Origin: a virus
Lineage: Duplodnaviria > Heunggongvirae > Uroviricota > Caudoviricetes
Direction: 5' to 3' (one strand)
Virus record (IMG/VR): IMGVR_UViG_3300002834_000024
Coordinates: 160,001 to 224,000 of that record
DNA length: 64,000 nucleotides
Positions 15,787 through 26,894 of this stretch are shown piece after piece (within the stretch, counting starts at the first letter, position 1; each line of letters opens with the position of its first letter). The translations under genes and the position numbers were made by a program. The notes beneath the pieces were generated by a model. That model saw only the letters and a list, made by a program, of their open reading frames with translations. It did no database searches and was not told the origin of the DNA.

Positions 15787-16728
15787 GTGTCAAGAAGATT
15801 AACAATAAATGAAGTTATTGAAAAAGCCATGAAAATTCATGGTGATAGATATTGTTATGATCTTGTTGAATATAAAAATAATAAAACAAAAGTTTGTATA
15901 ACTTGTAGAGAACATGGTATTTTTTGGCAAACCCCCCACAATCATATAGATATAAAAAGGGGGTGTCCGAAGTGTAATGGCGGTGTAAGATTAACACAAG
16001 ATGAAGCAAACAATAACATTATTTTTAGATTGAAAAATGATATTATTTTAAGTAAACCTTATATTCATAAAAATAACAGAAGTAGATTATATTTAAAATG
16101 TTTAAAAGATGGTTATGAATGGAATACTATATATAATAATTTTGTAAATACTGAAACTGGATGCCCAAAGTGTAGTAATGTAGCAACACTAACACAAGAA
16201 GAAGTAGAAGAAAATATTAAAAAAAGATGTTTAGAAGAAGATTGTATTTTATATAAACCACTCAAATATAATATAATTCAAAAAACAAGATTACATTTAT
16301 TATGTAATAAAGATAAACATAAATGGAGTACAAGTTATAATAATTTTGTGAATTGTAAAACTGGATGTTCAGTTTGTAAACAATCTCATCTTGAAAAAGA
16401 TATATTTTTATTTTTATTAAAAGATAATATAATCTTTGAACAACAAAAAAGATTCAAATGGTTAGGTAGAAAAAGTTTGGATTTTTATTTACCTGATTAT
16501 AATATTGCAATTGAGTGCCAAGGTGGGCAACATTTTAATTCACATAAACGATATGGAGGAGAAATTGGTTTAAACACAATTATGAAACGTGATAAAGAAA
16601 AATTTGAACTATGTAAACAGAATAATATAAATTTAATATATTATTCATATAAAAAACTTTTACCAAAAGAGTATCATTCATTCATTTTTACAAATGTTGA
16701 AAAAATAAAAGAAATTATAAATATTTAA
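15787..16728 (+). CDS. Free-standing homing-type endonuclease (DUF723-like Zn-ribbon repeats plus Vsr/DUF559-like nuclease domain)
   Basis: Three C-x-x-H/D...GCPKC/GCSVC repeats; C-terminal LDFYLPDYNIAIECQGGQH; interrupts the structural operon. Confidence 0.8.
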   Translation: MSRRLTINEVIEKAMKIHGDRYCYDLVEYKNNKTKVCITCREHGIFWQTPHNHIDIKRGCPKCNGGVRLTQDEANNNIIFRLKNDIILSKPYIHKNNRSRLYLKCLKDGYEWNTIYNNFVNTETGCPKCSNVATLTQEEVEENIKKRCLEEDCILYKPLKYNIIQKTRLHLLCNKDKHKWSTSYNNFVNCKTGCSVCKQSHLEKDIFLFLLKDNIIFEQQKRFKWLGRKSLDFYLPDYNIAIECQGGQHFNSHKRYGGEIGLNTIMKRDKEKFELCKQNNINLIYYSYKKLLPKEYHSFIFTNVEKIKEIINI

Positions 16729-17672: not shown

Positions 17673-20600
17673 ATGGCAGTATATTCAGACTTAAATAAGG
17701 TTATTGGAAGAACAATGTATTCCAAGAGAGAGCGACACCAAACATTGGGCGGTAGTGCTTTATCTGTTATTTATGATACAAACTGGTCGACCGTACAAAA
17801 TTCAGCAATATTTAATGAATATGGCTCTGGTGTTCAAGCTGGAAATTTTCAAATATTGTTTAATAATGATGGAAATACCGGAAAACAGTATAATAATGGC
17901 GATTGGATACGAAATAAAAATGGCGATGGTGCAACTTATAACATATCAGTAAATGCTTATGGACATATTCTATCAGCCACTCCAAATAATAATGGAACAG
18001 ATTACAGGGTTGGTGATAGATTTAGTGTAATTGCTGGTGGTGGTATTGAGGGTCTTGTAGAAATCAGTTCAATTGGACCAAATGGTAGTGTTATAGGTTT
18101 AATTGTAATTGAACCAGGTAGAGGTTATCCAACTTCAACAGCATTGCCATTAAATGATGATTTTTGGTCATTTAATGAACTTGTTTCAGACAGAGTATCA
18201 GAGGATACATTAGCAAAAAATGATGATTGGAAATTAAAATTAGATTTTAAAAACTTAAATAGTTTTGCATTATATGGTTCATTGAGTGAATTAATTAGAG
18301 CAAGTTTTGAAGATATTGTTTTAAAATATCCCGCATCATTGTGGATGATACCAACCAATTTGTCAACTGGGTTAAATTATGAATTACAAAACCCATTTAA
18401 CATAGATGTTTTTACAGAAAGTATGGTTTCAGATAACATAAGAATTTTTATTCCAAATTATCATAAGTATGAAATTGTACAAACACATTGGGTTGAATGT
18501 CATAATTTATGTGATAATCCAACACAATATTCAAAAAATGTTTTAAGTGATTGTATTACTGATATATCAAAAATTGATCCTTCATATAGATATGTTTATG
18601 TAAAAAAACCAGCATATCACAATAATCCACCAAATCCAAATGATCCATTTATCAATGGTTTTATTGGAGTTATTAATGACCCAGTATATGCGGATCCACC
18701 TGGTGGTTTTACTGTGAAAAATAATGAATTAATTGTTACATCGAAAGAAAATTTACTGTTAAATTCATTAAACGCATATTATTATCCTGTCAAATTATTA
18801 GACAGGATTGATATTGAAACAATATTAAGAAATGATTCACCAGCGTTTGCTACTGCATATCCATGTGCAACATGTGATGGACAACCAACAGTAACAGGTT
18901 CTGGTAGTGGTGCAACTGCAACAGTTACAGTTTCAAATGGCGGTATATTGTCAATACAAGTTGTCAATCCTGGTTCAAATTATGATCCAGTAACCACACA
19001 AATAATTATCAATGATCCAACAGGTAGTGGTGCAACTGCTGATCCAATTATTGATAGTAATGGTTCAATAACATCTATTCAACTAACAGCATCAGGTTCA
19101 GGTTATACAAATCCAACTGTAACTATTGTTGATAATACCAATCATAGAGAAGGATATGCGGTTGCTGTTATGGATGATGGTGTAAATGTTATTAATATAA
19201 TTAATGGTGGTTCTGGATATACGGATCCACAAGTTACAATTACAGGGGATGGTACAGGTGCAACAGCTGAAGCAAGAATAAACAGAGGTATTCAATCAAT
19301 TACTGTTACCAATGGCGGTGATGGTTATACTTCTCCAGTTGTTAGTATTACAGATTCAACAGGAACTGGTGCAAGAGGTCAAGCCATATTAGGAAATGGT
19401 AGAATAACACAAGTTATTTTAACAAATCCTGGTGTAAATTATTCAAATAGCCCAATTATAACTATTACAGATCCAACAGGTGTTGGTGCAGTTCTTCAAG
19501 CAAATGTAGATAGGAATATACAATCAATAACAGTAACTAATAATGGAACTGGTTATACTTCACCAACAGTTGTAATAACAGATGGTAGTGGAAGTGGTGC
19601 AACTGCAATTGCGAATCTGGATTGCCGAATTGATACAATATCAATAGTAAATCCTGGTTCTGGGTATATTAATCCACAAGTAGTAATTGATGATGTAAAT
19701 GGTTCTGGTGCGGTTGCGACTGCAATAGCAAATCGTGATATTACTGCAATAAATGTAACAAATCAAGGTCAAAATTATAGAAATCCAAGTGTAGTTATAA
19801 CAGATTCAAATGGATTGGGTGCAACAGCCAATGCTATATTGGGTGGTGATGGTAGCATAACAAGTGTAACAATAGATAATCCTGGTACTGGTTATACTAA
19901 TCCAGTTGCCACAATTCAAGATCCAACAGGTAGTGGCGCTATTATTACAGTTGGTGCAAGTAGGGGTATTGATAGAATAATAGTTACAAATGGTGGCGAT
20001 GATTATACATTACCAACAGTTGTAATCACTGATCCAACAGGTACAGGTGCAACAGCCACGGCTGAAATTGATGATACAATTACAATAATAGAAGTTGTTA
20101 ATCAAGGTTCTGGATATACAAATCCACAAGTGGTTATTACTGATCCAACAGGAACAGGTGCAACAGCTATTGCTGTATCTGATTGGGGATTAGATACAAT
20201 AACATTAACAAATTCAGGTACAAGTTACATAAATCCACAAGTAGTTATTACTGATCCAACAGGAACAGGTGCAACAGCCACAGCAATATCTAATACATTA
20301 GCAACTGTTACTGTTACAAATGGAGGTACTGGTTATATAAACCCAACAGTATCATTGACAGATTCAACTGGTTCTGGTGGAGTTATAACACCAATAATTA
20401 CAGGTGGGGTTATAACAGGATTTACAGTGATTAATCAAGGACAAAATTATACATCGCCAACTATTACAATTGAAGAATCAAGAATTGATAGTATTAGTGT
20501 AACAAATGGTACTGGAAATTATTCTAATCCAAGAGTAAGTATTTCTGATCCAACAGGAACTGGGGCAACTGCAATAGCAATATTTGATGGTGTTTTAAAT

Positions 20601-23600
20601 ACTATTTCAACAATTACTGTTACAAATGGGGGTACTGGATATGTAAATCCAAGAATTATTATTACTGATCCAACAGGAACTGGGGCAAGAGCAAGTGCTG
20701 TTATAACAGCTGGTGTAATTACCTCAATAAATGTGGATAGAATTGGAAATGGATATACTGCACCAACAGTAACCATTGTTGATGAACATATAGATACAAT
20801 TACCATTACAAATGGCGGTTTTGGATATGTAAATCCTTATGTAACTATTACTGACACAACAGGTACAGGCGCAAGAATTACACCAGTTATAACAGGTGGA
20901 GTAATAACAGATTTAACAATTGATGATGGTGGTAGTGGTTATACATTACCAACAATTAATATAATAGAAAATAGAATTGATAGTATTACCATTACAAATG
21001 GTGGTAGTGGATATAGCAGACCAACAGTTGTAATTACTGATATAACAGGTACAGGCGCAACAGCCACAGCATCTCAAACAACTGGTGTTATAGATAACAT
21101 AACATTAACAAATTCAGGTAGTGGTTATACATCCCCAACAATATCGTTTGGTGATGAGATTTCTTCCTTAACTATTGTGAATGGTGGTAATGGATATATT
21201 GCACCTGTTTTAAATATCTCTGATCCAACAGGAACAGGTGCAACTGCAATAGCAACGGTTGATGGGGTAGTTGGTGCAATTTCAACAATTACTGTTACAA
21301 ATGGGGGTAATAATTATGTTGCACCATTAGTTAGATTTATTGATCCAACGGGAACAGGTGCATCAGCAAGTGTTACACAAGTTGGTGGTGTTATCACTTC
21401 AATCACAGTTAATACAAGAGGACAAGGATATACAAGCCCAAGTATAGTAATAACTGATAGATTATCATCAATCAATTTAACAAACGGTGGTAGTGGATAT
21501 GTTTCACCTACTGTAACTATAACAGATCCAGGTGGTATTGGTACAGGTGCGACTGCCACAGCAACAATAGATGGTCAACCAGGTCAAATAGCATCAATTA
21601 CATTAACAAATGGTGGTAGTGGATATAGCAGACCAACTGTTATGATAAGTGATCCAACAGGCACAGGGGCTATTGCAACAGCAATGGTATCTGGTGGTGT
21701 TATACAATCAATAAATGTTACAAACAAAGGAAATGGTTATACTTCGCCAACCATTACAATTGGCGATAGTATTTCAGCAATAAATGTTACAAATCAAGGT
21801 AATAATTATTCAAGCACAGCAAGAGTTACCATAACAGATTCAACTGGTTCTGGTAGTGGTGCTGTTGGTGTTGTAAATGTTGTTGCAGGGAAAGTCATTG
21901 GGGTTTCTGTATCAAGTAGAGGACAAAATTATATAAATCCTGTTGTAACCATCGTAGATAACATGGGAGCTGGAACTGGGGCAACAGCAGTTGCTGTGGT
22001 TGGAACTGGGGCAACAGCCACAGCAACAATAGCAACAGGTGCAATACAAACAATAACATTAAATGCACCAGGTTTAAATTATTCAAATCCACTTGTAACA
22101 ATAAATGATACAAATGGTTCTGGCGCGACAGCAACAGCTGTAATAGGAACTGGTGCTATCTTTACAATTACAACAACAAGTGGTATAATTAATACCGCAA
22201 ACATTAATAATAGAGGGGTAAATTATACATCTCCCACAATTACAATTGGTGATAGATTATCAAGTATTACAATTACAAATGGTGGTTCTGGATATACATC
22301 CCCAACTGTAACTATAACAGATCCAACTGGACGACAATCTGTTTGTGTTGCAACCCAAGTCGCTGGTGTTATAACAGAAATAAGAGTTGTTAATGGTGGA
22401 AATAATTTTACATCTCCGACTGTAACCATTAATGATCCAACAGGAACAGGTGCAACTGCCACAGTAATAGTTGCTGGAACTGGTGGTATAATCAATGCTG
22501 TAATTGGTACAGGTGCAACTGCCACACTTGTTATTGGCGGTACAGGTGCAACTGCCACAGCAACAGTTGCTGGAACTGGTGGAACTGCAACCCCAACACT
22601 TGGAACTGGTACAATAACATCTATTGTTGTTACAAATGGTGGTTTTGGATATACTGCACCAATTGTAACTATTATGGATCCAACAGGCACAGGGGCTATT
22701 GCAACAGCAACAATTACAGGTATAGGTGCGACAGCAACAGCAAGTGTAAATTATGGAGTACAATCTATAACTTTAATCAATGCAGGTAAAGGATATACAA
22801 ATCCAAAAGTATCTATCATAGGTCAAATTGGTACAGGTGCGACAGCCACAGCAACGGTTAATACAGGTATTACAGAAATAATTGTTACAAATCCTGGTAG
22901 CAGTTATACAAATCCAACAGTAACAGTTACAGACCCAACAGGAAGTGGTGTTGTTCTCAATATTATCAGGGGTATTATATCTATAACAGTTACAAATCCT
23001 GGTAGCGGTTATACAAATCCACAAGTTGTTATTACCGATCCAACAGGTTTTGGTGCAACAGCCACAGCAATAATCAATTCTGGTATTGATTCTGTATCAT
23101 TTACACCAGGATTGGGATATTCAAATCCTACTATTGTTGTATCTGATCCAAACGGTTCTGGTGCAACCTTTATTGTTGAAATTAATAGATTTATACAAGC
23201 AATTAATGTTACAAATGGTGGTTCTGGTTATCTTAATCCAATTGTAACAATAAACGACACAAATGGCTCTGGTGCAACAGCCGAAGCTGTTGTTGATACA
23301 ACATTATCATCTATTACAGTTTTGAATGGTGGTTCTGGTTATACATCACCAACAATAACAATAGTTGAAGATTATATTTCAGAAATACTTATTGTAACAG
23401 GGGGTAGTGGTTATACAAACCCACAAGTGGTTATTACTGACCCAACAGGAACGGGTGCAACAGCTAATGCTACAATTGGTGTTTCTGGTGATATAGAAAC
23501 AATTACTGTTACAAATGGTGGTTTTGGCTATATATCACCGACAATAACAATTACTGATCCAACAGGTTTTGGTGCATTAACTATTGCATCAATAGATGGA

Positions 23601-26600
23601 ATAGGTGCAACAGTTAGTTATACTACTACATGTATAATTTCATCAATAACAGTTACAAATGGTGGTTCAAATTATTCAAACAATCCGACAATAACAATTA
23701 CTGATCCAACAGGTTCAGATGCAACAGCTACAGCAACAGTTAATACAGGTATTTCTTCAATAACAATATTAAGTTCTGGAAATGGTTATACTTCGCCAAG
23801 TATTTCAATTTCAGATTCAACAGGAACGGGTGCAAGAGCGCAGTTAAGAACATCATTTAGTATTATAGCAGTAAATGTATTAGCACCTGGTAATAATTAT
23901 ACATCACCAACAGTAATAATCACCGATCCAACAGGAACAGGTGCAACAGCCACAGCAACGGTTAATACATCAATATCATCTATTGTTATAACTAATCCTG
24001 GTTCTGGCTATACCAATGCAACAGTAACAATCACTGATCCAACAGGTACAGGTGCAATTGCAGAAGCATTAGTTGGTAACAGTGTTTCTAAAATAATTGT
24101 TATGGATGGTGGAAGTGGGTACTCAAATCCTCAAATAGTTATTACAGATCCAACTGGTTCTGGTGCAACAGCCGAAGCAGTATTAGGTAATAATGGCACA
24201 ATTACAAGCATATTTGTAAGAAATCATGGTATTGGTTATTCAAACCCAATAGTAGAAATTGTTGAACTTGATCCATACAACAGAGCATCAGCAATTGCAA
24301 CAGCTGATAGTAGTATTGAATCAATTACATTAACAAATGGTGGTTCAAGTTATATTAATCCTATTGTAATAATCAAAGATACTTGTGGAGGTGGTGGTGT
24401 TGGCGCAGTAGCTGAATATGAATTATCTAATGGTGTCATTACAAATTTAATTTTGGTATCTGGTGGTTCTGGATATAGAACTGGTTGTGTTGTAGTTGAA
24501 ATAAAAGATGAAGTTGTTTGTCAAGCACATACATTTACAATAAATTATCTTTATAATGATCATAATGGGGAACCTTGTGATTTAATTAAAACAGAAGTAG
24601 AAGTTGATGGTGGAACAATGTTTTCGGAAGGGACTTTAACCAATCCAAGCATTTCATTTCATATAAGACCAAAACTTTATTATGTTGAAGATTTTTTTAA
24701 TAACTTAAATGATTTTCAAAGAGTAATATTAAATAGATATACAATACCTATTTACACATCAATATTTCGTGTACCTATTCCAAATGAAATGGGTGATTAT
24801 GTTGGTATTTGGGGGGAACTTAAATATAGCTGGCCAATGCCTGATGGATGGAATTTAGATATTCAAACAAATGCCTTTAATGATTATGTTTCTAATTTAT
24901 CTAATATTTCTCAATATCTTGATAATAATGGTGGTAGATGTGATAATTTGTATCGGATGCTTACACATGAATCTTTAAAAAATCTTGACTGGTCATTCCA
25001 AAGAATTGAAGATGATAAATTAGCCGAAGCACACATGCTTGGTGAAAGTAAATTTAAAAAGATGATGCGTGTTTATGGTCGTCAATATGATGAAGTTAAA
25101 AAATATATTCATGGTATTGAATTAATGAACAATTTATCATATAATGAAAGGGATAATTATCCAGATGCAATGTTGAAAACGAATGTTGAATACTTTGGAT
25201 GGAAAGCATTATCACTTGAAAATAAACATAACATAGGAAATTCAAGTGGTCAATTATATTATGGGTGGACGGAAGATTATAATTCACATAATTTAGAATT
25301 GGAGTTTTATAGACGTTTATTATTAAATTCTGCTCATTTATCCAAATGGAAAGGAACCAAACATGGTTTAGAAATGATTATGAACTTATTTGGAATTGAC
25401 CGTAGAAATTGGGAAATTAAAGAATATGTTTATGTTGCTACTGGTAGTAATTTTATGTCCACAGATAAAAACTATATGTTTAGTAACAACAGACCAGCAA
25501 CAACAGTATTAGATGGGTATTTTTATAGGGTTGCCACTGGAGTAGTAACTTATAATGGTAGAACATATTATCCTGGACAAGGGTTTTCTGGCTGTCCAAA
25601 TGGTGGTGCAGCCACAGGGGGAACATTTTATATTGATGAGGTTGAAAGTATTGCTTATCTAAATTCAAAACGTGAATATACATTGAGGGGAGAAATTTTC
25701 TTTCATGGGGAATTAACACAAGAAAATGAGAATGAATATAATGACCCAGATGATTTACATGATTTGTGTATTGAACGATGGTATTATGGAGATTTTAAAG
25801 TTTGTCCAATTTGTGGACCTTATAATCCAGCAACAGGATTAGGTGGTGGTATTATTTCATCAGCTGGTTCTGGTAGAACAATTTGTCCTCGTTGTCATGG
25901 GACAGGTCAAGTTAGGGATTTTGTAGGTGTTCCTGCATTTAAAGGAAATACAAATATACTTTATTATCAACAAAAAGGAGGATGGTATCAAGATACAATG
26001 ACAACTATTGGACTTGCAAATACAATGACTGATTTGTTTAGAACAAATAGAAATGATTTACAAGAAGGTATGGTATATTTTGTAAAATCTGATGGAATAA
26101 TAGGTTCAACGCATTATTGGGTATTAGTTGATTTAAACAATTGGTCATCATTAAAAGGTTGGCATCCTGTAACCCAATCAGAAATGGGTGGATTTTCGTT
26201 TGTTGGTGCTGTTTCAAAAGACCATATTAGTGTTAATATTAATTTAATGTTACAAATACAGGATGAAAATTCTGGTAATAACCCACATACAGGTGGTATT
26301 GATGGTTATGATGATGGTTTGTCGTATTTACAAAATATTGGTAGTCGAATTAAAGATTGTACAGGTACTAATGTAGTATGTCGTTATAATCCTCCTCGTT
26401 CAGCAGTTCTTAATTGTCAAGGATTATTCAAATATGTTTTGGATAATTCACCTGAATGTATATGGTCAGAAACACAGTATTCAAATCTCGAAAATATTGG
26501 ATTTATCATTAATTGTGAATTAGATACCAAAAAATGTTGGGGTGTGTATTCAAATAATGATGATAAATTACATACAGATAATACTTATAACATTTTAGAA

Positions 26601-26894
26601 AAACATAGAAAGGATTTATGGTGTATTCCTACTTGGGATGATGATAATGATCCATCAACTCCTGATAAATGTGATTTTAGATGGTATTCTGAATTAAATA
26701 CAAGAAAAGTTAATTATTCAGTTCAAAATCCTGAACATTATAAAATAATTAATGTTAAAAATATTACATTATCATATTATCTAAATAGTAATCCCAATTA
26801 TTTTGATTATGATGAACAAGAGTTTATCAATTACATATTACCATATATTGAAGATATGATTCCAAGTAATACAATTATTGACCTTCAATACTAA
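17673..26894 (+). CDS. Giant baseplate wedge-like protein (3073 aa) with a long internal beta-repeat array
   Basis: C-terminal FYRRLLLNSAHLSKWKGTKHGLEMIMNLFG resembles the KGT-x-x-G-L motif of P2 gpI/T4 gp7-like wedge proteins; ends YIEDMIPSNT; about 1850 aa of repeats. Confidence 0.7.
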   Translation: MAVYSDLNKVIGRTMYSKRERHQTLGGSALSVIYDTNWSTVQNSAIFNEYGSGVQAGNFQILFNNDGNTGKQYNNGDWIRNKNGDGATYNISVNAYGHILSATPNNNGTDYRVGDRFSVIAGGGIEGLVEISSIGPNGSVIGLIVIEPGRGYPTSTALPLNDDFWSFNELVSDRVSEDTLAKNDDWKLKLDFKNLNSFALYGSLSELIRASFEDIVLKYPASLWMIPTNLSTGLNYELQNPFNIDVFTESMVSDNIRIFIPNYHKYEIVQTHWVECHNLCDNPTQYSKNVLSDCITDISKIDPSYRYVYVKKPAYHNNPPNPNDPFINGFIGVINDPVYADPPGGFTVKNNELIVTSKENLLLNSLNAYYYPVKLLDRIDIETILRNDSPAFATAYPCATCDGQPTVTGSGSGATATVTVSNGGILSIQVVNPGSNYDPVTTQIIINDPTGSGATADPIIDSNGSITSIQLTASGSGYTNPTVTIVDNTNHREGYAVAVMDDGVNVINIINGGSGYTDPQVTITGDGTGATAEARINRGIQSITVTNGGDGYTSPVVSITDSTGTGARGQAILGNGRITQVILTNPGVNYSNSPIITITDPTGVGAVLQANVDRNIQSITVTNNGTGYTSPTVVITDGSGSGATAIANLDCRIDTISIVNPGSGYINPQVVIDDVNGSGAVATAIANRDITAINVTNQGQNYRNPSVVITDSNGLGATANAILGGDGSITSVTIDNPGTGYTNPVATIQDPTGSGAIITVGASRGIDRIIVTNGGDDYTLPTVVITDPTGTGATATAEIDDTITIIEVVNQGSGYTNPQVVITDPTGTGATAIAVSDWGLDTITLTNSGTSYINPQVVITDPTGTGATATAISNTLATVTVTNGGTGYINPTVSLTDSTGSGGVITPIITGGVITGFTVINQGQNYTSPTITIEESRIDSISVTNGTGNYSNPRVSISDPTGTGATAIAIFDGVLNTISTITVTNGGTGYVNPRIIITDPTGTGARASAVITAGVITSINVDRIGNGYTAPTVTIVDEHIDTITITNGGFGYVNPYVTITDTTGTGARITPVITGGVITDLTIDDGGSGYTLPTINIIENRIDSITITNGGSGYSRPTVVITDITGTGATATASQTTGVIDNITLTNSGSGYTSPTISFGDEISSLTIVNGGNGYIAPVLNISDPTGTGATAIATVDGVVGAISTITVTNGGNNYVAPLVRFIDPTGTGASASVTQVGGVITSITVNTRGQGYTSPSIVITDRLSSINLTNGGSGYVSPTVTITDPGGIGTGATATATIDGQPGQIASITLTNGGSGYSRPTVMISDPTGTGAIATAMVSGGVIQSINVTNKGNGYTSPTITIGDSISAINVTNQGNNYSSTARVTITDSTGSGSGAVGVVNVVAGKVIGVSVSSRGQNYINPVVTIVDNMGAGTGATAVAVVGTGATATATIATGAIQTITLNAPGLNYSNPLVTINDTNGSGATATAVIGTGAIFTITTTSGIINTANINNRGVNYTSPTITIGDRLSSITITNGGSGYTSPTVTITDPTGRQSVCVATQVAGVITEIRVVNGGNNFTSPTVTINDPTGTGATATVIVAGTGGIINAVIGTGATATLVIGGTGATATATVAGTGGTATPTLGTGTITSIVVTNGGFGYTAPIVTIMDPTGTGAIATATITGIGATATASVNYGVQSITLINAGKGYTNPKVSIIGQIGTGATATATVNTGITEIIVTNPGSSYTNPTVTVTDPTGSGVVLNIIRGIISITVTNPGSGYTNPQVVITDPTGFGATATAIINSGIDSVSFTPGLGYSNPTIVVSDPNGSGATFIVEINRFIQAINVTNGGSGYLNPIVTINDTNGSGATAEAVVDTTLSSITVLNGGSGYTSPTITIVEDYISEILIVTGGSGYTNPQVVITDPTGTGATANATIGVSGDIETITVTNGGFGYISPTITITDPTGFGALTIASIDGIGATVSYTTTCIISSITVTNGGSNYSNNPTITITDPTGSDATATATVNTGISSITILSSGNGYTSPSISISDSTGTGARAQLRTSFSIIAVNVLAPGNNYTSPTVIITDPTGTGATATATVNTSISSIVITNPGSGYTNATVTITDPTGTGAIAEALVGNSVSKIIVMDGGSGYSNPQIVITDPTGSGATAEAVLGNNGTITSIFVRNHGIGYSNPIVEIVELDPYNRASAIATADSSIESITLTNGGSSYINPIVIIKDTCGGGGVGAVAEYELSNGVITNLILVSGGSGYRTGCVVVEIKDEVVCQAHTFTINYLYNDHNGEPCDLIKTEVEVDGGTMFSEGTLTNPSISFHIRPKLYYVEDFFNNLNDFQRVILNRYTIPIYTSIFRVPIPNEMGDYVGIWGELKYSWPMPDGWNLDIQTNAFNDYVSNLSNISQYLDNNGGRCDNLYRMLTHESLKNLDWSFQRIEDDKLAEAHMLGESKFKKMMRVYGRQYDEVKKYIHGIELMNNLSYNERDNYPDAMLKTNVEYFGWKALSLENKHNIGNSSGQLYYGWTEDYNSHNLELEFYRRLLLNSAHLSKWKGTKHGLEMIMNLFGIDRRNWEIKEYVYVATGSNFMSTDKNYMFSNNRPATTVLDGYFYRVATGVVTYNGRTYYPGQGFSGCPNGGAATGGTFYIDEVESIAYLNSKREYTLRGEIFFHGELTQENENEYNDPDDLHDLCIERWYYGDFKVCPICGPYNPATGLGGGIISSAGSGRTICPRCHGTGQVRDFVGVPAFKGNTNILYYQQKGGWYQDTMTTIGLANTMTDLFRTNRNDLQEGMVYFVKSDGIIGSTHYWVLVDLNNWSSLKGWHPVTQSEMGGFSFVGAVSKDHISVNINLMLQIQDENSGNNPHTGGIDGYDDGLSYLQNIGSRIKDCTGTNVVCRYNPPRSAVLNCQGLFKYVLDNSPECIWSETQYSNLENIGFIINCELDTKKCWGVYSNNDDKLHTDNTYNILEKHRKDLWCIPTWDDDNDPSTPDKCDFRWYSELNTRKVNYSVQNPEHYKIINVKNITLSYYLNSNPNYFDYDEQEFINYILPYIEDMIPSNTIIDLQY
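18891..24480 (+). repeat. Array of 50 degenerate ~37-aa half-repeats (consensus ITSITVTNGGSGYTNPTVTITDPTGTGATATA)
   Basis: Counted directly in the translation; DNA motif gatccaacagg(a/t)acaggtgcaac recurs. Confidence 0.9.

Follow-up and report, generated by a model that had tools for sequence, protein, structure and literature searches.

The P0001 locus and its repeat array

The analyzed stretch (the window) comprises 64,000 nucleotides, positions 160,001 to 224,000 of the IMG/VR record IMGVR_UViG_3300002834_000024, from the 275-kb genome of a termite-gut phage. It carries a gene for a giant repetitive protein, P0001, with the following features (window positions; aa, residues of P0001).

17673..26894 (+): open reading frame of the 3073-aa virion-type protein P0001 (PHROGs matches via its repeats only)
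17958..18167 (+): two possible divergent half-repeats, aa 96-165, of which the second lacks strand A (weak HMM matches)
18885..18938 (+): C-turn-A hairpin PTVTGSGSGATATVTVSN upstream of unit 1 (12.3 bits to repeat positions 14-34)
18948..24500 (+): repeat array, aa 426-2276, with 50 half-repeats interpreted as 25 barrels of two units each (HMM parse and translation)
24501..26891 (+): Cys-rich C-terminal non-repeat region of ~800 aa (no family matched)

An HMM for the B-loop-C module served to locate the half-repeats (units) of the array, which are ~37 aa each and run in the order strand B, GxGY loop, strand C, tight DPTG turn, strand A. All half-repeat and orphan-strand sequences and coordinates were verified by translation. 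The span originally assigned to the repeats, 18891-24480 (aa 407-2269), covers this array. The hairpin PTVTGSGSGATATVTVSN, at aa 405-422, could close an N-terminal opened unit (see below) or be part of a degenerate unit 0. The assignment of aa 96-165 as two divergent N-terminal half-repeats is speculative; such units are clearer in the ortholog P0002 than in P0001 itself.

No described repeat or Ig-like family in Pfam or NCBIfam matched the P0001 repeats. Searches of both non-repeat ends against Pfam, NCBIfam and PHROGs, and of the C-terminal part against the ESM Atlas, returned no usable match. The label "baseplate protein", attached to this product in the initial annotation, is unsupported: the ends yielded just phrog_17744 (E 0.0021, at aa 73-155, a segment that looks repeat-like) and TIGR02242 (E 0.067), with no Pfam match, and no tail families were found among the neighbouring genes.

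A balanced bracket grammar and its recurrence

Eight of the 50 units (14, 17, 19, 21, 24, 27, 31 and 40) have neither the turn nor strand A. In these opened units, 23-24 aa long, strand C directly joins the following strand B. Eight extra GTG-A strands, or orphans, occur after units 29, 30, 34 and 42 (one each) and after unit 33 (four).

20415..22748 (+): large nest, from opened unit 14 to its closing orphan, aa 915-1692 (bracket parse)
20415..20486 (+): opened unit 14, ending TIEESR-I, strand A missing (translation)
20721..20792 (+): opened unit 17, ending IVDEH-I (translation)
20907..20978 (+): opened unit 19, ending IIENR-I (translation)
21093..21161 (+): opened unit 21, ending FGDE-I (translation)
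21396..21464 (+): opened unit 24, ending ITDR-L (translation)
21705..22145 (+): module modelled with AlphaFold2, aa 1345-1491, consisting of opened unit 27, barrel 28+29, an orphan, a Gly linker and unit 30
22002..22034 (+): orphan GTGATATATIA, closing unit 27 (parse; strand E104-110 of the AlphaFold2 model)
22146..22178 (+): orphan GTGAIFTITTT, closing unit 24 (parse and translation)
22191..22259 (+): opened unit 31, ending IGDR-L (translation)
22476..22601 (+): four orphans in a row, GTGGIINAVI, GTGATATLVIG, GTGATATATVA and GTGGTATPTL (parse and translation)
22719..22748 (+): orphan GIGATATASV, closing unit 14 (parse and translation)
23307..23630 (+): second, simple bracket, aa 1879-1986, with opened unit 40, barrel 41+42 and orphan GIGATVSYTTT (parse)

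The eight C-into-B junctions listed in the initial annotation are identical to those of our independent HMM parse, and its eight later orphan A strands were all recovered and verified by translation. Taken as opening and closing brackets, these elements form the strings 14(15 16 17(18 19(20 21(22 23 24(25 26 27(28 29)30)31(32 33))))34) and 40(41 42), which balance, reach a depth of six and enclose 2, 4, 2, 4, 2, 2, 4 and 2 units of their own. The earlier claim of balanced, six-deep brackets with even contents (2 or 4) was thus reproduced, and among 1,000,000 shuffles of the P0001 tokens 11% were well formed and a fraction of 1.8e-4 were both well formed and even in every bracket. The large nest encloses 20 half-repeats (10 barrels) in six levels, and the run of four orphans closes units 31, 21, 19 and 17, at each step the one most recently opened. 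Cutting is exact: each opened unit stops directly after strand C, orphans start with GTG, a remnant of the turn, and the first and last elements of the inserts are B and A, respectively. In all closed brackets examined, both in P0001 and in independent proteins, the content is even. Pairwise DNA identity between P0001 units does not exceed 77% over 66 nt, which speaks against recent unit duplication and, therefore, for an old and maintained nest. In a direct-coupling analysis of 560-1079 two-unit windows, gaps and subfamily structure accounted for most of the signal, and the C-to-A hairpin showed only weak coupling.

The sole ortholog found, P0002 (63% identity to P0001), has a bracket string that is identical unit for unit; scans of viral and metagenome contigs revealed no close ortholog beyond it. 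At aa 325-408, P0002 carries a B-C-A-B-C-A module inserted in its N-terminal domain and absent at the P0001 counterpart; the barrel is a portable module. The grammar recurs in other arrays, with balanced, even brackets in the ortholog, in sheaths and in further unrelated proteins. P0030 and P0082 contain seven nested brackets (depth 6, all even; 3e-5 among shuffles), the string is 3(4-11) 12(13 14) in P0003, the tail sheath of this phage itself, and 9(10-13) 14(15 16) in the related sheath P0007, and closed brackets are present in P0169, P0211, P0168, P0109 and P0200 as well. The 18 half-repeats of P0003 (aa 346-1030) occupy an internal variable region. Of the two matches of P0003 to phrog_23, the one at aa 14-107 is weak (E 2.6e-5) and the other lies at aa 1545-1827 (E 3.7e-36 for the whole C-terminal query). 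In this tail-sheath protein the barrel sits as an insert within the variable outer region.

A balanced pattern might, in principle, emerge by chance in a low-complexity, fast-evolving repeat, and the composition of the array is indeed simple (G, T, A, I, V). This explanation, already disfavoured, is extremely improbable in view of the rarity of such strings among shuffles, the identical string in an ortholog at 63% identity and the recurrence in unrelated proteins.

With an E limit of 0.001, the repeat profile picks up 16,743 cluster representatives. The family, which is uncurated, spreads over phage sheaths, fibres and wedge-type proteins and over bacterial and archaeal surface proteins. Recurrence is reported here as hand-checked examples only, since automated counting of brackets in 241 family members gave too much noise (where the HMM misses divergent units the result mimics a run of closers, and low-score matches mimic opened units). 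In P0052, P0035, P0042, P0047 and P0083 full and truncated units alternate and the truncated ones are never closed, which implies that a barrel can exist without its sixth strand. The connectors of these unclosed units have 3-8 residues (e.g. SAPGI, PAGNRTV), as opposed to the 1-2-residue junctions of P0001.

Predicted structures of hosts and inserts

The AlphaFold2 model of the bracket 27(28 29)30 (aa 1345-1491) reached a mean pLDDT of 94.3 and a pTM of 0.77, with four of the five models scoring 84 or more; the alignment had only nine rows, all of them natural sequences with this architecture, and regular arrays were kept out of it. The model contains two copies of one barrel, each with six strands by DSSP, and the best structural match of both is domain I of T4 gp18 (PDB 3FO8, 3FOA; Z 6.2-6.8, rmsd 2.4-2.8, 72-74 aligned residues and 16-20% identity over these matches). 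The insert barrel (model residues 24-99) superimposes on gp18 domain I (99-186) with a VIA-align Z of 6.7 and rmsd of 2.6 over 73 residues, and a set spanning model residues 1-147 does so with a Z of 6.2 and rmsd of 2.4 over 72 residues. As the latter count is close to the 71 residues lying outside the insert, we infer that opened unit 27, its distant orphan and unit 30 make up one barrel; the pairing of the orphan with its host follows from where the alignment starts and ends and from how many residues it contains. The next unrelated PDB match scored a Z of 3.6 in a wide search and 2.9 in a second look. Z values to gp18 domain I were 6.7, 6.2 and 5.8 for this model and 6.8, 6.6 and 6.5 for a model of the second bracket, with the whole of domain I covered; VIA-align values below 8 are moderate.

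That second model (aa 1769-2064, bracket 40(41 42)) had a mean pLDDT of 64. Its insert 41+42 (pLDDT 76-90) matches gp18 domain I at Z 6.5-6.8, and the host was left unresolved, with pLDDT of 33-38 for opened unit 40 and 39-65 for the orphan strand. The alignment used (13 rows) combined two kinds of host, opened in either the first or the second half; such a mixture of bracket architectures gave a poor model, and the homogeneous alignment gave a pLDDT of 94. Foldseek against the PDB found nothing at E 0.001 or better for the low-confidence model. At the sequence level, a profile of 40 two-unit domains did not match gp18 among PDB sequences at E up to 10, and PF16190 (E1_FCCH) was absent from the barrel matches at the same E limit.

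The initial annotation had proposed a two-half-repeat beta domain as the folding unit, with whole domains inserted in loops of others. The former agrees with the two gp18 domain I-like barrels of the confident model and with the even-number rule, and the latter is supported by the one host-plus-insert module modelled with confidence (1 of 8 brackets), where a host is interrupted by a complete domain and completed afterwards. The prediction that modelled orphan strands would complete their hosts was supported for 27(28 29)30 but not for 40(41 42), owing to the low pLDDT of its host. The remaining seven brackets probably work in the same way, judging from their parse, which gives six levels of hosts within inserts, the structural model spanning one level.

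Two other folds have to be considered for the same sequence. The alternating Thr/Val/Ile strands look like fibre repeats, and in the low-confidence model strand A continues into strand B of the following unit as a single long strand, as would befit a continuous beta-solenoid or a multi-chain fibre in which truncated units and extra strands are register shifts. This is quite improbable, as both models show closed six-stranded barrels (pLDDT 76-97) with a gp18 domain I match and the two-unit module stands isolated as an insert in P0002. The array might otherwise be a linear string of beads, with truncated units forming five-stranded barrels of the P0052 type and the extra A strands acting as spacers that pair locally, either with the barrel before them or among themselves. 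The never-closed units of other family members and the lack of confidence with which AlphaFold2 placed the orphan of unit 40 are consistent with this arrangement. On the other hand, it would leave unexplained the equal numbers, the last-in-first-out order and the even contents (both in P0001 and in P0030); the first and last residues of the confident model share one gp18-like barrel (72 residues aligned) that could not be formed without the orphan; and the connectors of the unclosed units differ from the shorter P0001 junctions. We consider the linear arrangement unlikely, if less so than a solenoid or fibre.

A proposed self-nested barrel and its place among nested proteins

We favor a reading in which two half-repeats form one barrel and barrels are nested in the C-to-A turns of other copies, producing a branched tree (probability of roughly 0.75). 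Two successive half-repeats fold into one six-stranded beta-barrel of ~75 aa of the gp18 domain I kind; its start and end are probably adjacent, and for this reason one or two whole barrels could fit in the C-to-A hairpin turn of another. The host chain would then run B-C, insert, A, leaving a truncated unit and, later on, an orphan A strand. Such insertion would have happened eight times in P0001, inserted barrels in turn hosting others, so that 11 of the 25 barrels would sit in a hairpin loop of a fellow barrel, in as many as six levels, and 14 barrels would stand in series at the top level. Barrel pairs were assigned by unit order within each level; the C-turn-A hairpin upstream of unit 1 makes the pairing register at the top level uncertain, and the linker motifs (Gly-x-Val/Ile) did not decide it. 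By this assignment barrel 13+14 would bear a ten-barrel tree, with (17,34), (18,19), (20,21), (24,31), (27,30) and (28,29) as its host chain and (15,16), (22,23), (25,26) and (32,33) as side barrels, and barrel 39+40 would bear the single barrel (41,42). The tree-like chain of ~25 domains envisaged earlier is, by the parse, indeed branched, but it is mostly linear, a 14-barrel backbone with one ten-barrel tree and one single barrel. Since orphan strands can dock only after their insert has been synthesized, folding would proceed from the inside out.

In T4 gp18, the six-stranded barrel of domain I is inserted in domain II, II in III, and III in IV (PMC3004832). Domain I resembles the P0001 inserts in strand number, size and being inserted, and it faces outward. 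However, gp18 contains a single barrel of this kind, accompanied by a helix and nested among three differently folded domains, whereas P0001 nests a single fold in itself, with 25 copies per chain. Another comparison is with Si3 of the cyanobacterial RNA polymerase beta' subunit (RpoC2), where copies of a small beta domain are likewise recursively inserted in each other: in the crystal structure 4 of 8 motifs are assembled from distant chain segments (PMC10895346), and this six-level, eight-domain nest is the extreme example given in a survey from 2026 that covered 2.7 million classified domains (PMC13114784). The Si3 fold is a sandwich-barrel hybrid motif, apparently unlike the P0001 barrels, which matched gp18 domain I best, the protein and its biology differ, and the Si3 structure 8emb was matched by Foldseek at an E of only 2.2, using the low-confidence model; we regard Si3 as architecturally analogous rather than homologous. 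P0001 differs further in building its barrel from two half-repeats, either of which can host, in a single fixed insertion site (the hairpin turn), in inserts of one or two barrels, and in having 25 domains and 8 insertion events. In the RTX adhesins AhLap and MpIBP an Ig-like domain is interrupted by an inserted domain with adjoining termini that buds off the axis of these long, repetitive surface proteins (PMC12077191), much as we propose for P0001; their inserts are ligand-binding, of another fold and mostly one level deep, whereas in P0001 host and insert are the same domain. By analogy with these split domains, the nest may be a compact, branched, surface-exposed arm of the virion, displaying many copies of decoration or adhesion domains off the chain axis.

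We found no earlier description in the literature of deep self-nesting of this barrel. Deep self-nesting is already known for Si3, and P0001 would be a second case in an apparently unrelated fold, equal to it in depth by the parse, with one stereotyped site and more domains. It is possible, though we hold this tentatively and at somewhat less than even odds, that self-insertion at one turn is a general mode of growth in this repeat family of at least 16,743 clusters. If true, the family would follow a simple context-free grammar (domains composed of two halves, each half reading B-C-[domains]-A) producing rigid branched arms, their shape set by the bracket structure and their hosts finished only after the inserts are made. 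The nest offers a natural system for studying the folding of discontinuous domains and might also serve as a branched scaffold for multivalent display. As the bracket pattern is readable from sequence alone, annotation of branched domain trees could be extended to thousands of giant proteins of phages and cell surfaces, which currently look like plain tandem repeats.

Repeat units and bracket string of P0001

The virion-type protein P0001 (3073 aa) is encoded on the plus strand at window positions 17673-26894, the window covering bases 160001-224000 of a virus record of 274,786 bases in total. An HMM of the B-loop-C module located 50 half-repeats at aa 426-2276, usually 36-42 aa long and consisting, in this order, of strand B (xSITVTN), a GGSGY loop, strand C (PTVTIT), a DPTG turn, GTG with strand A (ATATA) and a short linker; no further copy was detected elsewhere in the window. 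Eight units (14, 17, 19, 21, 24, 27, 31 and 40) are opened: they lack the turn and strand A, measure 23-24 aa each, and have strand C joined directly to the next strand B. Eight extra GTG-A strands (orphan strands) follow units 29, 30, 33 (four consecutively), 34 and 42, so that this HMM parse bears out the eight opened units and eight later orphan strands of the initial annotation.

With an opened unit written as a left bracket and an orphan strand as a right one, the array reads 14(15 16 17(18 19(20 21(22 23 24(25 26 27(28 29)30)31(32 33))))34) and 40(41 42). The string is balanced to a depth of six, and its brackets contain 2, 4, 2, 4, 2, 2, 4 and 2 units of their own. Among one million shuffles of the tokens 11% were well formed, and a fraction of 1.8e-4 were both well formed and even in all brackets. 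The parse and the shuffle test together uphold the claim of balanced brackets, six deep, each with 2 or 4 of its own half-repeats. The G+C content of the array is 0.33-0.37 (about 0.27 in the surroundings), and its minus strand contains two antisense ORFs (155 and 167 aa; window 22223-22763) that are probably by-products of repeat composition.

Just one close relative was found, P0002 (3161 aa), which is 63% identical over the nest and repeats the bracket string unit for unit, down to the four consecutive orphan strands and a diverged version of the last bracket; viral and metagenome scans revealed no ortholog beyond it. No two units of P0001 exceed 77% DNA identity (over 66 nt), so the nest is old and represents neither a recent duplication nor an assembly artefact. 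Opened units show their best resemblance to other opened units. A complete B-C-A-B-C-A two-unit module (P0002 aa 325-408) is present within the N-terminal non-repeat domain of P0002 at a position vacant in P0001, which marks the two-unit piece as a portable module.

Predicted structure of single brackets

The structure prediction of fragments, proposed in the initial annotation, gave a divided outcome. The first AF2 model (aa 1769-2064, 13-row alignment, mean pLDDT 64), covering bracket 40(41 42), resolved the contiguous insert of units 41 and 42 (76-90) but not its host (33-38 for opened unit 40 and 39-65 for its orphan strand); in its alignment, brackets whose opened unit is the first half of a barrel stood together with brackets whose opened unit is the second. 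The second alignment was composed of nine natural sequences from several distinct protein groups, with no regular arrays added, all of one shape (opened first half, two-unit insert, orphan strand, Gly linker, second half). The resulting twelve-stranded model of 27(28 29)30 (aa 1345-1491) reached a mean pLDDT of 94.3 and a pTM of 0.77, with all ten-residue blocks at 90-97 and four of the five models scoring 84 or more.

Its top VIA-align match among 48,161 PDB chains was T4 gp18, the best unrelated match having Z 3.6 (2.9 in the second comparison). Residues 99-186 of gp18 (domain I) aligned with the insert (model 24-99; Z 6.7, rmsd 2.6, 73 aligned) and again with 72 residues spanning model 1-147 (Z 6.2, rmsd 2.4). 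Because the model has 71 residues apart from the insert, this second match must draw on model 1-23 and 100-147. These aligned ranges and counts suggest that opened unit 27, its orphan strand and unit 30 would form one barrel. For this bracket, the model and the gp18 alignments thus support the proposal of a two-half-repeat domain inserted into a loop of another. Shape matches in the ESM Atlas, aligned over 89-114 residues, were all to phage virion proteins, namely sheath proteins and wedge proteins of gp6-like and gp8-like type. Domain I of gp18 is a six-stranded barrel protruding from the sheath, and gp18 is itself nested, with domain I in II, II in III and III in IV (PMC3004832).

The bracket grammar in other proteins

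The repeats belong to a very large family, whose profile matched 16,743 cluster representatives at an E cutoff of 0.001, including fusions to multicopper oxidase, fibronectin type III or T9SS sorting domains; the repeats had no match in Pfam, NCBIfam or PDB sequences. The bracket cases listed here were checked by hand. Parsing other arrays by the same grammar, also suggested in the initial annotation, yielded closed, even brackets in two unrelated proteins, P0030 (4058 aa) and P0082 (2601 aa), which share the string 1(2 3(4(5(6(7(8 9)10(11 12))13)14)15)) plus 17(18 19), of depth 6 (3e-5 in shuffles). Simpler strings are 1(2(3 4)5) in P0169 and 1(2 3) in P0211, P0168, P0109 and P0200, and in P0128 orphan strands occur five to eight in a row.

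Some family members lack bracket balance: in P0052, P0035, P0042, P0047 and P0083 full and truncated units alternate strictly, with connectors of 3-8 residues, and the truncated units are never closed later. An opened unit alone is therefore no proof of a later returning strand. This alternation still fits a two-unit domain, as the truncated unit comes after a full one, and it suggests a five-stranded barrel variant.

The phage's own tail sheath, P0003, belongs to the bracketed cases:

G000:C1:67065-72563 (L029:1566-7064), P0003 gene, outside the window, about 110 kb upstream of P0001

Both ends of this 1832-aa protein match phrog_23 (tail sheath), and its internal region comprises 18 half-repeats with closed brackets 3(4-11) and 12(13 14). 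The sheath of a related phage, P0007, reads 9(10-13) 14(15 16), so the homologous bracket differs by four units in content.

The Si3 region of cyanobacterial RpoC2 is a documented case of a fold inserted recursively into its own copies, with eight motifs on six levels (PMC13114784, PMC10895346). Our literature search found no paper describing such nesting for a gp18 domain I-like barrel or for this repeat family.

Probable domain tree and possible role of P0001

The most likely architecture, obtained by pairing the units of each level in order, has 25 barrels. The top level would consist of fourteen in a row; a ten-barrel tree would branch from the unit 14 hairpin and one barrel from that of unit 40, and three brackets would hold two barrels apiece. 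The tree would be truly branched, because barrel (24,31) would host two inserts, in agreement with the branched chain of about 25 domains originally proposed. An orphan strand closing a first-half unit is always followed by a small-residue Gly-x-Val/Ile linker and a new strand B; one closing a second-half unit leads either into a further orphan strand or into the following top-level barrel. This pattern is a consequence of the even rule and adds no independent evidence. Two features precede unit 1:

aa 405-422, window 18885-18938, C-turn-A hairpin
aa 96-165, window 17958-18167, two divergent half-repeats (weak HMM support, clearer in P0002), one of the 'GxxYxVGD' type and the other without strand A

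Judged by sequence, the N-terminal 240-aa domain may be a ninth insert, with the aa 96-165 units closed by the aa 405-422 hairpin, or a degenerate unit 0 may exist; given these features, the pairing register of the top-level barrels is provisional.

The "baseplate" identity of P0001 proved unsupported: its PHROGs matches arise from the repeats, its non-repeat ends could be assigned to no family, and its gene neighbours (an HNH endonuclease, a RuvC-like protein, a primase and ORFs without family) include no tail families.

Window 15787-16728, HNH or homing-endonuclease-like ORF (phrog_559, E 7e-57), two genes upstream of P0001 among family-less ORFs
Window 24501-26891, C-terminal 800 aa of P0001, Cys-rich, with a CPICGP...CPRCHGTG pair of CxxC motifs

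The CxxC pair gave only weak zinc-ribbon and DnaJ-CXXCXGXG matches (E 0.2-0.4).

Domain I of gp18 is exposed; in the extended sheath it touches the baseplate, and it binds the long tail fibres in their retracted state. The same barrel as in P0001 decorates this phage's own sheath. In RTX adhesins split domains hold their inserts off the protein axis (PMC12077191), as the P0001 inserts may do. By such analogies we infer that the nest would, in the simplest reading, form a branched, compact and exposed arm displaying many barrels.
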